Source of the DNA: a virus
Taxonomy: Duplodnaviria > Caudoviricetes
IMG/VR virus record: IMGVR_UViG_3300023119_000004
DNA: 64,000 nt
Strand: one strand, 5' to 3'
Shown: piece by piece, positions 21-21,726 of the stretch
How the letters are laid out: the number at the start of each line of letters is the position of its first letter
How positions within the stretch are numbered: position 1 is the stretch's first letter
Position numbers and translations under genes: made by a program
The notes under the pieces: generated by a model
Seen by the model: only the letters and a program-made list of their open reading frames with translations
Database searches by the model: none
Told to the model about the DNA's origin: nothing

Positions 21-120
21 CTGTGGATAAGTCTGTGGATAAGTCTGTGGATTCGTTGTGGATAGGTTGTGGATAACTCGTGATCTGTGGATAACTCTGT
101 GGATAACTCTGTGGATAAGT
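21..120 (-). repeat. Tandem DnaA-box array (8 boxes, 11-12 bp period)
   Basis: TGTGGATAA (reverse complement TTATCCACA, consensus DnaA box) is exact at 22, 34, 68, 86, 98 and 110, with variants at 46 (TGTGGATTC) and 57 (TGTGGATAG). All are in the same orientation; unit (C)TGTGGATAA(G/C)T. Confidence 0.9.
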
Positions 121-156: not shown

Positions 157-178
157 TAAGTCATTGATTATTAAGAGG
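157..178 (-). promoter_or_regulatory. IHF consensus site, left arm of a 22-bp inverted repeat
   Basis: 157-169 TAAGTCATTGATT is the reverse complement of AATCAATGACTTA, matching WATCAANNNNTTR. The arm matches 246-267 at 20/22. Confidence 0.65.
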
Positions 179-211: not shown

Positions 212-239
212 GGTGCGTATAAGGTTTATTATGTTAAAT
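212..239 (+). other. dif-like XerC/XerD recombination site 1
   Basis: GGTGCGTATAA-GGTTTA-TTATGTTAAAT versus E. coli dif GGTGCGCATAA-TGTATA-TTATGTTAAAT: 25/28 identical, exact XerD arm, 6-bp spacer. Confidence 0.85.
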
Positions 240-245
240 TCAAGA

Positions 246-267
246 CCTGTTAAGAATCAATGACTTA
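246..267 (+). promoter_or_regulatory. IHF consensus site, right arm of inverted repeat
   Basis: AATCAATGACTTA at 255-267 matches WATCAANNNNTTR and lies between the two dif-like sites. Confidence 0.65.
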
Positions 268-285
268 CAGTTCAAAACCGAGCCA

Positions 286-313
286 TTTGCGTATATAATA
301 TATTATGTTAAAT
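286..313 (+). other. dif-like XerC/XerD recombination site 2 (direct repeat of site 1)
   Basis: TTTGCGTATAT-AATATA-TTATGTTAAAT: exact XerD arm, degenerate XerC arm with the TGCGTATA core; starts 74 bp after site 1. Confidence 0.7.
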
Positions 314-420
314 TCGAGGTGGGGCTGAATTTAATTTGATTTTTTGGCTATTTAGGGGTTGACTTTTGGAACCGTTGACCATATACTGTAAAGACAATGA
401 GGGATAAGAGGGAACAAGAT

Positions 421-1235: not shown

Positions 1236-1264
1236 ATTATAACACATTTTGGACGAGATGTCAA
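1236..1264 (-). promoter_or_regulatory. Leftward perfect-consensus sigma70 promoter
   Basis: Minus strand TTGACA-17 bp-TATAAT; divergent from the + promoter at 1299. Confidence 0.75.
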
Positions 1265-1334
1265 CCAAAATAATTCAATTTTTTTTGCATTTTTTGGGTT
1301 GACATTTTGGTAAAAAGAGTCTATAATACGTAGT

Positions 1335-3606: not shown

Positions 3607-3834
3607 ATGAAACTTTCAATTCAAGGTTCAAACATGACAGAGATCACAACCGCTCGAGGTAACAAGGTTCTCTACTCATACGAAACGCCAGTTGCTGGAT
3701 GGACCGAACAAGGTGCATTCCGAACTGAAGAGAAGTTCTCGGTGACTACTAGCAAACACATCAACAAATACCTAGGTGGTAAGGATGTGGGCAAGGTAGT
3801 TCCCCAGAAGTGGATCGAAGGGTTGGTCCAATAA
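3607..3834 (+). CDS. Conserved phage hypothetical protein
   Basis: 75-aa ORF (VLYSYETPVAG...TTSKHINKYL), abutting its neighbours. Confidence 0.75.
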   Translation: MKLSIQGSNMTEITTARGNKVLYSYETPVAGWTEQGAFRTEEKFSVTTSKHINKYLGGKDVGKVVPQKWIEGLVQ

Positions 3835-4025
3835 TGAAAAAGATTCTACTCATAGTGGCCCTGGTCAGTCTAACTGGCTGTGGGACTATGAGCGGGAGAG
3901 ATGTGATCAAAAGCATTAACCTTGCCAAGAACGCATCTATGATCACCAAAGCAGGAGTAGAAGAGTCTGTGATTACCAAAACCAAAGACATCTTCGATCC
4001 GGCCAGAGGTGGTGGAAAATGGTAA
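3834..4025 (+). CDS. Small lipoprotein
   Basis: MKKILLIVALVSLTGC: basic N-terminus, hydrophobic core, LTGC lipobox. Confidence 0.7.
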   Translation: MKKILLIVALVSLTGCGTMSGRDVIKSINLAKNASMITKAGVEESVITKTKDIFDPARGGGKW

Positions 4026-4510: not shown

Positions 4511-4596
4511 GCCCCTGTGGTGGAATTGGTAGACACAAGGGACTTAAAATCCCTCGCTGATATGGCGTGCCGGTTCGAGTCCGGCTGGGGGCACCA
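4511..4596 (+). tRNA. tRNA-Leu (UAA)
   Basis: Acceptor GCCCCTG/TGGGGGC, anticodon arm AGGGA-CTTAAAA-TCCCT, long variable arm, GGTTCGAGTCC T-arm, encoded CCA. Confidence 0.95.
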
Positions 4597-4608
4597 ATTC
4601 ATACATAT

Positions 4609-4686
4609 CTGCCCGTAGTTCAGTTGGATTAGAACAACGGTCTTCTAAACCGTAGGTCGCAGGTTCGAGTCCTGCCGGGCAGGCCA
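4609..4686 (+). tRNA. tRNA-Arg (UCU)
   Basis: Acceptor CTGCCCG/CGGGCAG, anticodon arm ACGGT-CTTCTAA-ACCGT, GGTTCGAGTCC T-arm, encoded CCA. Confidence 0.95.
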
Positions 4687-9271: not shown

Positions 9272-9466
9272 ATGGATAGACACTCATTTATGCTCAAGCA
9301 ATACAGTGAGCAACAACTACGTAAAAAGAAAGAAATGGAATTATGGAAGGCTCGTCATGAGGTGGAAATAAATGGTCATGGTACTTCTGGTTATGTAGTA
9401 AAGCATGGTCCTAACAAAGATAAAATCTTAGGACATCAGTCTACTAAATCTACCAACAACTGGTAG
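9272..9466 (+). CDS. 64-aa basic protein under riboswitch control
   Basis: Strong RBS AGGAGG; directly downstream of the riboswitch. Confidence 0.8.
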   Translation: MDRHSFMLKQYSEQQLRKKKEMELWKARHEVEINGHGTSGYVVKHGPNKDKILGHQSTKSTNNW

Positions 9467-9470
9467 TCAA

Positions 9471-9526
9471 AAAAAAGAGCAATCCGGGTGTACACATAAT
9501 AATACGTATACCCGTTGCTCTTATAA
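9471..9526. terminator. Long hairpin, probably a bidirectional terminator
   Basis: AAGAGCAA/TTGCTCTT plus CGGGTGTAC/GTATACCCG stems between convergent genes. Confidence 0.6.
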
Positions 9527-9547
9527 AAATTTAAGTGAAAAATTTTG

Positions 9548-9772
9548 TTATTGATTAGCCTTAACTACAGGCCATAGTTCTTTTACTAGTTTGTCTTTGG
9601 TTTGTCTACGATCAAGTTCTATACCGTGAACACGACCCAAGTCTTCTAGTTGTGTTTTGGTCATTTTAGCAAGTTCAGCACGTTTAAGTTTACGCGGTGT
9701 CTCTACAGGTTTATCCAATACTAGAGGCTCCTGTACAGTACTGCCAAATAACGATTTTAACCATTTTAACAT
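9548..9772 (-). CDS. Small protein with Rho-N/HeH-like helical motif
   Basis: LAKMTKTQLEDLGRVHGIELDRRQTKDKLV; TATAAATA upstream at 9789-9796. Confidence 0.7.
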   Translation of the reverse strand: MLKWLKSLFGSTVQEPLVLDKPVETPRKLKRAELAKMTKTQLEDLGRVHGIELDRRQTKDKLVKELWPVVKANQ

Positions 9773-13202: not shown

Positions 13203-14192
13203 TTAGTTATTATACCATACGTTAGGGTTAAAGTCAATAGTCTTTTTATCCATTGCTAATACAGCGCCAATGCAACTTCCTGGGTCACCCGGGTTAGGTG
13301 GAACATATACACTATTCCATGTTTCTCTTAGTTGGTCCATTGCATCTCTATTTAACGCACAACCGCCTGTTACAATTAAATCCCGATTTGGTAAGTTTTC
13401 GGTACACCATTTAGCACTAGACTTAACAATCATTTCAAAAACACTTTGGGTAGCATTAGCAAGTCTTTTCATATCATCTTCTGTAGTTAGGTCAGGTCTA
13501 TACCATTGGCAACCTTTGTGTAGGTTGTGTTTAAACTTAACACCTGGTTTAGATCCATCTAACGGTCCGTCGATAAATGTTTTGATTAGATCATTTATTA
13601 ATGATAAGTTTTCTGTAATAGCAATATCTCTTCCTGCTTCACTAATTTTGTATTCTTCTGCATTAGGTTTAAATCCACAACGCATTGTCATAGCACTATA
13701 AAATAATCCAATACTATGTGGATAACTTTGTGAATAAACTTTCTTTAGTTTTCTATTAGAATCACCAGACCAAATAGTAAAACATTCAAACTCACCAATG
13801 CTGTCTAAACACATGACAGTTGCTTTAGGAATGCCTTGTGTATAGTAACCATATGCCGCATGGCTATGATGGTGTTGCATATATTTTACAGGACAGTCAA
13901 TGCCTAAGTCTGCAAGATACTTTTCAATATTATTTTCTTTTACACAACTTAAGAAACTGCCTTGGCCTGCTCGCCATTGTCTAAATGATTTTAACAAAGG
14001 CTTTTCATACCATACTACTAAGTCAGGCTTGCCATAACTTTGTATTGCTGTTTGAATTTGTATTGGGGAATGTTTAGGATCGTTTGGCACATCACTAAAC
14101 TTGTTAGCGGTACTTGCCCAAACTAAAAACCCGTCTTTGAAAACAGCCAGCGATGCATCGTGACTGTTACCTACCATTCCCCAAGTAATCAT
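13203..14192 (-). CDS. Carbamoyltransferase (NodU/CmcH family), N-terminal Kae1-like domain only
   Basis: HDASLAV, HHHSHAA, LDSIGE, SIGLFYS, GGCALN and PGDPGSCIGA motifs; 329 aa. Confidence 0.8.
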   Translation of the reverse strand: MITWGMVGNSHDASLAVFKDGFLVWASTANKFSDVPNDPKHSPIQIQTAIQSYGKPDLVVWYEKPLLKSFRQWRAGQGSFLSCVKENNIEKYLADLGIDCPVKYMQHHHSHAAYGYYTQGIPKATVMCLDSIGEFECFTIWSGDSNRKLKKVYSQSYPHSIGLFYSAMTMRCGFKPNAEEYKISEAGRDIAITENLSLINDLIKTFIDGPLDGSKPGVKFKHNLHKGCQWYRPDLTTEDDMKRLANATQSVFEMIVKSSAKWCTENLPNRDLIVTGGCALNRDAMDQLRETWNSVYVPPNPGDPGSCIGAVLAMDKKTIDFNPNVWYNN

Positions 14193-14812
14193 TATCTTTT
14201 CTCCACAACCTGATCAGCAAGACCATAGTCGACTGCTTCTTGTGCTGACAAGAAAGTATCAAACTTCATTGTCTCTAACAGTTCCTCGTATGTCTTTTCT
14301 TTTGAATTGTGTTTAGCATACAACTCAACCAATCGTTCGTTAATACGTTTAGACTCTTGTAAGTGTCTAATGTTATCTTCCATTTCAAGTTCTTGTACGT
14401 ACACACTACCGCCTGTACCTCTTGTTCCTGAACTTACTCTGTGAATCATTGTACGTGATTCAGGTAGTACAATACGATGTCCTGGCTCCCCTGCTTGTGC
14501 TAGGAATGACCCCATCGATGCCGCTTGGCCCATTACAATAGTACGCACAGGACATTTAATATACTGCATAGTATCATAGATAGCAAGACCTGCTGTTACT
14601 TGACCACCTGGACTGTTAATATACAAGTTAATTGCTTTTGCTGGATCTTCACTTTCTAAGAACAGCATCTGTGCTACAACTGAATTAGCCATAACATCTT
14701 CTACTGGTCCATTAAGCATTACAATACGATCCTTAAGCAAACGACTATAAATGTCATATGCTCTTTCGCCTTTACTTGTTTGTTCAACTACCATAGGTAT
14801 TAATGTTGACAT
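14192..14812 (-). CDS. clpP: ATP-dependent Clp protease proteolytic subunit
   Basis: [27 protein letters not shown] (catalytic Ser), MIHR (catalytic His). Confidence 0.92.
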
Positions 14813-20847: not shown

Positions 20848-21079
20848 CTTTTATAGTATACCATATTGTTTCAACTTTGTCAAGTGCTTTTCTTAAAGTT
20901 GGATAATTTTTACTAGCGTCTATAATATCCATCCATTGATTGAAATCTTCAAATAAATTCTTTTGTGGGTTACCGCCAACAACCCAACGGTCTATTTCCG
21001 GGCGGTTCGCATAACGAGCATAAACTACATCGTCTACACGTTCGTATATCAAATCTTCGCCCGGAATTAGTTTAGCCAT
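20816..21079 (-). CDS. Hypothetical protein
   Basis: 87-aa ORF (LIYERVDDVVYAR). Confidence 0.65.
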   Translation of the reverse strand: MAKLIPGEDLIYERVDDVVYARYANRPEIDRWVVGGNPQKNLFEDFNQWMDIIDASKNYPTLRKALDKVETIWYTIKDETEKETSTK

Positions 21080-21726
21080 TACTTCACTTTGAATTTGCTT
21101 CTTAAGTATTGAAGTAGTAAGCCATATGCTGGTAGGAATACAATTAGTCCTACAACGATCTTAGTCAGTGTATTGTTCTGTGCAACTACGTGCCAGTTAG
21201 CACCAATCCAAGATAGATTGCCTTCTGCATCTGTAGAACCTGCAAACGCCACATAAAAGAATGAGTATGTGTCAATGATGTTAGCCGCGATAGTTGAAAT
21301 CGCTGGAGCCGCCCACCATGCGTCAGAACGTTCTCTAATTGCCTGGAATACATATACGTCTAGCATAGTACCAATAGCATAAGCAGTACCACTTGCAAAA
21401 CCAACTCTGTATGCGTGTGGATCATCTAATGCTAACAGCACGAGGACTGAGGCAATAATAGCAGGAATAATAGCCATTGCTACAACAGCACGACCTGCTT
21501 CTTTACCAACCATACGTACTGTAAGGTCAGTTGCTACGACTACAATCGGGAATGTGAATGCGGCCGCCGCTAGTGGAAATGATCCAAACAAGGGCAAGTC
21601 TGCACCTGGAAATAGATCAAATCTAATTGTTACTAAGTAATTACTTACTGCAATTACTAGTGTGTGTAGGATTACTAGTTTAGTTACTAGTGCTCTATCT
21701 ACACCTTCTAGTAGTTTTGTAAACAT
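21079..21726 (-). CDS. yhhQ: Queuosine-precursor (preQ0/preQ1) transporter, YhhQ/VUT family
   Basis: VIAVSNYLV, AFTFPIVVVATDLTVR..G...GR.VV, AS..AY..G..LDVYVF and ST..AN.IDT..FF.VAF motifs; multiple TM helices. Confidence 0.85.
   Translation of the reverse strand: MFTKLLEGVDRALVTKLVILHTLVIAVSNYLVTIRFDLFPGADLPLFGSFPLAAAAFTFPIVVVATDLTVRMVGKEAGRAVVAMAIIPAIIASVLVLLALDDPHAYRVGFASGTAYAIGTMLDVYVFQAIRERSDAWWAAPAISTIAANIIDTYSFFYVAFAGSTDAEGNLSWIGANWHVVAQNNTLTKIVVGLIVFLPAYGLLLQYLRSKFKVK

Follow-up and report, generated by a model that had tools for sequence, protein, structure and literature searches.

Two directly repeated dif-like sites near the start of the window (the whole 64-kb stretch of phage DNA analysed here) were found to be the two parts of one fixed module built around an IHF-consensus core, a relationship that the first-pass annotation of this DNA had overlooked. 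The same module recurs with a conserved geometry in several unrelated groups of uncultured phages, and single dif-like sites were observed in a large set of cultured lytic myoviruses. The reading that we tentatively favour is that host XerCD recombines phage DNA with phage DNA, the outcome being either circularisation or the resolution or conversion of multimers. This biological role, together with the XerCD binding, IHF binding and strand exchange that it would entail, we infer from the dif identity, conservation, geometry and distribution of the sites. The features concerned are listed in Table 1.

Table 1. Dif-like sites and associated elements at the start of the window, and dif-like sites of cultured phages
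Feature	Position	Strand	Composition and remarks
dif-like site 1	212..239	+	XerC arm GGTGCGTATAA (212-222), 6-bp spacer GGTTTA (223-228), XerD arm TTATGTTAAAT (229-239)
dif-like site 2	286..313	+	XerC arm TTTGCGTATAT (286-296; last base T, not A), spacer AATATA (297-302), XerD arm TTATGTTAAAT (303-313)
IHF-consensus element AATCAATGACTTA	255..267	+	fits WATCAANNNNTTR; midway between sites 1 and 2; predicted from sequence
Inverted copy of the IHF-consensus element, followed by a T-run	157..169	-	consensus match; left arm of inverted repeat
DnaA-box array	21..118	+	six perfect TGTGGATAA boxes and two variant boxes, 12-bp period, head-to-tail
Sigma-70 early promoter TTGACT-17-TATACT	359..387	+	predicted by promoter scan; serves ORF 397-927; kept in the diverged relative L305
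Site of phages FV3 and YN3			GGTGCGCATAA TGGGTA TTATGTTAAAT; arms identical to E. coli dif at 22/22 positions; spacer differs
Site of phage CB7			spacer GGTGTA
Site of phages A5-4 and UPEC06			spacer GTTGTA
Site of phage DP			spacer CGTGTT

As the first-pass annotation had described, the two sites are direct repeats on the + strand, 74 bp apart from start to start, with exact XerD arms; the 46 bp between them contain no ORF. Exact copies of the 11-nt XerD arm are confined to sites 1 and 2 within the 64 kb of the window. Compared with the arms of E. coli dif, site 1 matches at 21 of 22 positions, its one mismatch lying in the XerC arm (10/11), while site 2 carries four mismatches, with an exact XerD arm and a XerC arm matching at 7/11 positions. 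A set of 300 composition-preserving shuffled windows contained a mean of 0.017 sites per window at up to four mismatches and none at up to one, and against these counts a chance origin of two sites only 74 bp apart is negligible and was ruled out. Both sites possess the components of a Xer site, i.e. a XerD arm and a XerC arm with a 6-bp central region, and by their sequence both 28-bp elements are genuine dif-type (XerC/XerD-type) sites.

A comparison with bacterial dif sites, as proposed by the first-pass annotation, revealed both arms of site 1, base for base, in the chromosomal dif of Yersinia rohdei and Gilliamella (XerC arm 11/11) and of several marine gammaproteobacterial MAGs; in all of these bacterial sites the arms flank the spacer TGTATA. 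This spacer was observed 67 times, and TATATA 24 times, in the 120 bacterial dif-type sites among the matches listed; neither GGTTTA nor AATATA was found in those 120 sites. The suggestion of a gammaproteobacterial host, previously derived from the XerC arm, held in so far as the GCGTATAA-type arm is mostly gammaproteobacterial, but some betaproteobacterial cases were also encountered, and the arm type gives a weak hint to the host.

The module was compared among sequences of differing background divergence. Across four contigs of near-identical strains, positions 143-329 are invariant while the DnaA array and positions 330-339 vary, a weak indication for strains so alike. The diverged relative L305/L331, a 75.7-kb contig, aligns with the window at random level in its intergenic DNA outside four conserved blocks, which correspond to site 1 (31/31 nt including the spacer), an 11-nt core (TCAATGACTTA), site 2 (24/28) and the promoter. 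An exact scan of metagenomes with the inner 25 nt of site 1 retrieved at least eight contigs, all of them phage-like or plasmid-like, and the same layout was present in six phage-like lineages, with site 2 in the form nnTGCGTATA(A/T) AATATA TTATGTTAAAT. In relatives L324 and L327, site 2 is canonical (nnTGCGTATAA AATATA TTATGTTAAAT), and the inner nine bases of the site-2 XerC arm in relatives are the canonical TGCGTATAA. The 25-mer search pattern did not require the site-2 spacer, and the conservation of that spacer thus represents an independent result: the difference between GGTTTA and AATATA noted in the first-pass annotation is present and is kept in relatives, with AATATA at site 2 in five lineages. 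The XerD arm is exact in all relatives with the module. Its conservation had earlier been set as a point on which the dif assignment could fail; instead, both arms were found to be kept in relatives whose flanks have diverged to random level.

Logan contigs of other phages, assembled from four salt-marsh runs, match the window in segments that begin or end at 212/214, 248, 286 and 315, and in three of these runs, contig depth summed over 202-335 reaches 2-4 times the value of the flanking DNA. These match limits and the raised depth at the module indicate that other co-occurring phages share just these elements. More distantly, no dif-like site was detected upstream of the homologue of the neighbouring protein in L122-L146 (≤58% identity); L139-L141 and L146 contain a weak match with a 7-bp spacer. 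In L305, the heptamer ACAGCCG(A/G) occurs at least seven times between 2900 and 3420 (- strand), its copies surrounding the module and also falling within promoters and the first ORFs, and in related salt-marsh contigs it stands directly after site 2. A GC-rich, plasmid-like metagenome contig (L330, 1210-1240) was also observed to carry the identical 25-nt site, including the GGTTTA spacer, flanked by an ORF fragment with a resolvase helix-turn-helix and, approximately 1 kb away, by an ORF fragment with an integrase SAM-like N-terminal domain.

The arrangement of the two sites was found to be as conserved as the sites themselves. In the window, the module consists of site 1, 17 nt, a TCAA(N4)TTA core, 18 nt and site 2. 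When viral contigs were scanned for pairs of XerD arms separated by 48-78 nt, 53 loci emerged, approximately 35 of which display a common layout that the search pattern did not demand. The core lies 17 nt after the first XerD arm in 20 of 21 distinct variants, and the distance from the core to the second site is 8, 18 or 19 nt in 20 of the 21. In locus L329, where the first gap is 28 nt and the second 29 nt, 11 bp have been inserted on each side of the core, and each insert contains a DnaA box. The resulting start-to-start distances (64, 74, 75 and 96 bp) are each close to a whole number of helical turns, and helical phase that has survived both insertions and deletions marks a protein-DNA assembly whose two sites and bend must all point to the same side. 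Arms are constant and spacers variable between lineages, as expected of Xer sites.

The 21 module variants are spread over several unrelated groups of uncultured phages. These include the jumbo T4-like lineage of the window, small phages (L303 and L318) whose terminase gene is 1.5-2.3 kb away from the module, and a set of large contigs, designated here as group A, with Bacteroidota-type promoters and weak XerC arms. The central core of group A modules is one half of a palindrome that is repeated many times nearby, and may bind a phage or plasmid protein instead of IHF. At group A loci L272, L273, L287, L292 and others, this palindrome (TAACTnnTTGAT..ATCAAnnAGTTA) is present in many copies over approximately 250 bp on each side, accompanied by TAnnTTTG promoter motifs, which are typical of Bacteroidota. 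All modules reside in ORF-free, repeat-rich stretches of 0.4-2.1 kb, some of which contain DnaA boxes. Among loci for which the whole contig was available (L282, L304, L309, L313, L303 and L318), the module is situated 0.2-1.4 kb from a contig end, which could reflect either recurrent assembly breaks at repeats or true genome ends.

The surroundings of the module in the window are likewise rich in predicted sites for host proteins. The IHF consensus has only seven matches in the whole 64-kb window, and at both the direct and the inverted element of Table 1 a consensus match is combined with a nearby A/T tract, as is typical of a candidate IHF site. The two elements form part of a 26-nt inverted repeat (157-182/242-267, 88% complementary) that brackets site 1. 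A hairpin of the CTXphi type was considered and set aside, as the single-stranded DNA fold of 130-330 gave an unconvincing z-score of -1.7. Perfect DnaA boxes number nine in the window against 0.69 expected; their copy number varies among co-occurring strains, with four perfect boxes in L268 and L269 compared with the six in the array of the window, and a second DnaA-box pair is located at 1184-1204, 1.1 kb downstream of the array. Upstream of window position 1, metagenome contig L267 contains a further ~740 bp of non-coding DNA with GGTCACT-type iterons, which brings the gene-free region to approximately 1.1 kb in all, comprising iterons, DnaA boxes, an IHF-type site and then the dif-like pair. 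This region resembles an origin of the iteron type; a gene for an initiator was not identified. Iteron arrays precede the module both in L267 (GGTCACT-type, 9440-9640) and in L305 (CTCACTG-type, 3650-3900, - strand); in L305, iterons are present and DnaA boxes absent. The start of the window falls within the strain-variable DnaA array, where short-read contigs also break, and is therefore read as an assembly break, not as a physical end. The ORF at 397-927, served by the early promoter, belongs to phrog_21968, of unknown function. Further downstream, two perfect consensus promoters are placed back-to-back at 1236-1264 (-) and 1299-1327 (+), with a third, leftward one at 1142-1170; the leftward promoters within 1142-1327 point across the second DnaA-box pair, and no gene that they might serve is obvious.

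The proximity of promoters raises the question of whether the elements are related to Xer at all, or instead are promoters or operators arranged in tandem, through which a regulator of the phage or its host would act. Neither the identity to dif arms at 21 of 22 positions nor the retention of GCGTATAA together with the spacer is needed by a promoter, and the candidate -35 element of the promoter predicted across site 2 (TTCAAA-17-TATAAT, 271-299) is not conserved in relatives. We therefore regard such a regulatory role as very unlikely, all the more so because phages with promoters of the Bacteroidota type retain the XerD arm, and the same 25-mer occurs on the plasmid-like contig. It would nevertheless accommodate several observations, namely that dif itself resembles an extended -10 promoter, a motif that the TGtTAAAT of the XerD arm fits, that the module lies just upstream of early promoters in all relatives, and that group A preserves well only the XerD arm and an ATAA tract.

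The source phage is apparently a giant, marine, lytic T4-like myovirus, judging by its gene content. The terminase, of the T4 type, shares 53% identity with its counterpart in Pseudomonas jumbo phage PA5oct, the window encodes a tail sheath, a tail tube and a T4 gp15-type sheath stabiliser, and its replication and recombination genes specify gp32-like and UvsX/RecA-like proteins, a DnaB-like helicase, a primase and a dNMP kinase. The runs in which the phage sequence was found are salt-marsh metagenomes. Other features of the window, at 14192-14812, 21079-21726 and 4511-4686, are a ClpP-type protease, a Vut_1 (YhhQ-like) transporter, and tRNA-Leu(TAA) and tRNA-Arg(TCT). No tyrosine recombinase was found among approximately 50 window ORFs scanned with Pfam or PHROGs (ORFs below ~100 aa in part), which bears out the earlier statement that the window encodes none, and host XerCD would consequently be needed. 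Phage_integrase and FtsK_gamma domains were likewise absent from the scanned window ORFs, the 75.7-kb relative and four complete Vequintavirinae genomes.

The first-pass annotation had suggested that each site could target a different partner, such as the host dif or a sister genome, with host XerCD used as by CTXphi-type IMEXs. Read as integration, each site would recombine with a host dif, or the pair with both dif sites of a two-chromosome host. The presence of dif-like sites on a genome without its own recombinase is indeed shared with CTXphi, VGJphi and TLCphi, two spacers could address two partners, and AATATA is only one position removed from the common marine TATATA. The proposal was not sustained, however, by the sequences in which the sites were found. 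The exact 28-mer of site 1 is absent from 185,579 species genomes (exact matching); the metagenome contigs bearing the site, at least eight in number, are phage-like or plasmid-like, and the four contigs that contain this stretch (three of them longer than 36 kb), as well as the Logan contigs, show phage DNA on both sides, with no host junction or integrated copy. No phage-host junction at dif was seen in the at least eight metagenome contigs or in the Logan contigs of the four runs, although in contigs searched by exact matching such an absence proves nothing. The gene content is that of a T4-like lytic phage, and similar sites in strictly lytic cultured Vequintavirinae have spacers unlike the TGTATA of E. 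coli. Moreover, complete Xer exchange needs homology in the central region, and the phage spacers consistently differ from TGTATA and TATATA, which argues against crossover with the host dif and is compatible either with copies of one phage site recombining among themselves or with binding that leads to no exchange. Integration at the host dif is accordingly regarded as highly improbable. The Logan contigs also contained no junction deleting the 74 bp between the sites, and apparent joints from 315 to 1678 were rejected as recombination products, being short promoter-like similarities from related phages.

Another point overlooked by the first-pass annotation, which had regarded Xer use by such a phage as unexpected, is that dif-like sites are not exceptional in virulent phages. 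A BLAST comparison of site 1 with 50,697 phage records yielded approximately 270 matching records. These included the expected CTXphi and small Acinetobacter and Vibrio elements, while most were lytic myoviruses of 131-150 kb, i.e. Vequintavirinae and their allies (rV5-like, FV3, CB7, CR3, SSE121, Klebsiella BIS47 and DP). In each of the seven cultured records examined, a single site with an exact XerD arm was located either in a terminal repeat or in a large non-coding region, the latter measuring 1.5-2.3 kb in CB7 and FV3. The site of Klebsiella phage DP (L335/L336) lies inside an annotated 514-bp terminal repeat, identical at both ends, that of E. coli phage YN3 (L339/L340) within 458 nt common to both ends of the record, and that of UPEC06 (L337/L338) within a repeat of ~462 nt; as a consequence, each of these linear genomes would carry two direct copies. 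For the related phage KPP-1, coverage and PhageTerm analysis established a direct terminal repeat of 514 bp (PMC9862379). An IHF core at +17 is absent from the single sites of the cultured phages, and, with one site and no such core, their biology may not transfer to the phage of the window. A phage-encoded Xer activator was also sought: a UPEC06 protein annotated as 'DNA translocase FtsK' has no Pfam match, and FtsK_gamma is absent in Vequintavirinae, and this candidate was dismissed. The non-coding region additionally holds repeats resembling Fur boxes in CB7 (L332, 660-1500) and FV3 (L333, 1180-1560), one of which, in CB7, matches the Fur consensus at 18 of 19 positions, suggestive of a site for a further host DNA-binding protein.

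Recombination of phage DNA with phage DNA by host XerCD would bring these observations together as follows. The XerC/XerD sites and the central IHF-type bending site would constitute one module inside a gene-free, origin-like region, on which host XerCD, aided by IHF, would act with no phage-encoded recombinase. One site would serve as the crossover site, and the other as an accessory XerCD-binding site, which would face the same side of the helix and which the bend would fold back. Such a subsite arrangement, resembling that of res/six systems, could provide FtsK-independent, intramolecular selectivity, and the conserved difference between the spacers would prevent the two sites from deleting the intervening 74 bp. 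The ends of a terminally redundant genome would thereby be joined into a circle or a head-to-tail concatemer, or dimers of an early circular replicative form would be converted. For a site within a short terminal repeat, a position exactly suited to such joining, exchange between the left and right copies would leave a single repeat, either in a circle or at a concatemer junction. The identical 25-mer, spacer included, on the plasmid-like contig beside resolvase and integrase fragments was counted in favour of Xer-type recombination.

Several observations were counted against recombination among phage DNA molecules. The window phage has T4-type replication and recombination genes and a T4-type terminase, and T4 itself neither circularises nor needs dimer resolution. 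A two-fold depth step, which would mark a short terminal repeat, was not seen over positions 1-2000, although contig means from mixed strains provide a weak test, and the distant relatives, at ≤58% identity of the neighbouring protein, are without the sites. Given that no terminal repeat is demonstrable for the window phage and that T4-type replication does not obviously need circles, the recombination of phage DNA with phage DNA is advanced as plausible, somewhat short of probable.

The same geometry could be explained by a structure in which no strand exchange takes place. XerCD on both sites, together with IHF and nearby DnaA, would then form a fixed nucleoprotein structure at the origin, with the spacers blocking exchange, and such a structure could organise the firing of the origin, recruit host Topo IV, stop FtsK or soak up host proteins. 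According to two published papers, FtsK stops at XerCD-dif, and strong Topo IV cleavage at dif depends on XerC (PMC2800217, PMC4865107). The phase-locked geometry and central bend would place the two sites side by side in antiparallel orientation, the conserved, non-identical spacers fit a dead-end synapse, and the module adjoins DnaA boxes and iterons, with DnaA boxes inside the module in L329. Conversely, full conservation of both arms and the 6-bp spacer is a requirement of catalysis, exceeding what binding needs, and recombination offers the simpler account of the single site found in Vequintavirinae terminal repeats, for which reasons an inert structure is considered unlikely. The non-identical spacers and the antiparallel, side-by-side arrangement that would result from the U-turn fit an accessory role of the res type and an inert XerCD-IHF complex alike.

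If recombination by host XerCD applies, a more general proposal may be formulated, rather unlikely as it stands: large virulent phages, encompassing both marine jumbo phages and the rV5-like Vequintavirinae, would routinely hijack XerCD in trans for circularising or concatenating terminally repeated genomes, and a two-site, IHF-bent Xer 'res' would confer FtsK independence and selectivity for phage DNA. Plasmids, filamentous phages and genomic islands are known to exploit Xer, whereas virulent tailed phages are not known to do so. In a search of open-access full texts, no paper was identified that connects Xer or its dif site with terminal repeats or with lytic myoviruses, whether rV5-like or other. 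Use of the sites would imply a new host dependency for Vequintavirinae, a large and therapeutically relevant phage group, a new means by which linear phage DNA escapes attack on its ends, and a new accessory architecture for Xer activation. In addition, the XerC arm type would offer a sequence marker for guessing the hosts of uncultured phages.

With respect to known Xer systems, the phage sites share the 11-bp XerC arm, 6-bp centre, 11-bp XerD arm and (as proposed here) dependence on host XerCD with chromosomal dif, cer of ColE1, psi of pSC101 and the pdif sites of Acinetobacter, the last of which are the best plasmid matches. In contrast to these chromosomal and plasmid sites, the phage module is carried by a tailed phage of virulent type. 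Whereas cer and psi have ~180 bp of PepA/ArgR/ArcA accessory DNA on the XerC side, the phage has two direct sites 74 bp apart around an IHF-type core; an accessory region of the cer type was discounted, as the best ARG-box match in 1-420 has three of 14 specified positions wrong. Likewise, pdif modules are inverted pairs that enclose genes, whereas the phage sites are direct with no ORF between them, and the phage pair does not constitute such a module. The IMEXs (CTXphi, VGJphi, TLCphi and the gonococcal genetic island) similarly combine a mobile genome and a dif-like site with the absence of a recombinase, an absence that for the phage refers to the 64-kb window scanned. However, IMEXs are small filamentous phages or islands integrated at dif, while the present phage is a myovirus for which no integrated form was seen, and attP1 and attP2 of CTXphi are inverted, unlike the direct phage pair with both arms intact.

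Beyond Xer, the closest architectural likeness is to res/six systems (res of Tn3 and gamma-delta, six of pSM19035 with Hbsu, and the TnpI IRS of Tn4430), which combine a crossover site with accessory subsites at a fixed, phase-dependent spacing, some with a bending protein. The likeness is restricted to architecture, since these elements encode their own recombinases, unlike the phage module; we know of no description of a Xer-based version of res built from a second full dif-like site and IHF. In function, the proposed role corresponds to that of Cre-loxP in phage P1, where crossover between lox copies cyclises terminally redundant DNA and resolves dimers. In both cases, crossover would take place between copies of one site with cyclisation and dimer resolution as the outcome, a functional analogy for which no homology is claimed: P1 employs its own recombinase on a symmetric 34-bp site, whereas the enzyme proposed to act on the phage module described here is that of the host.
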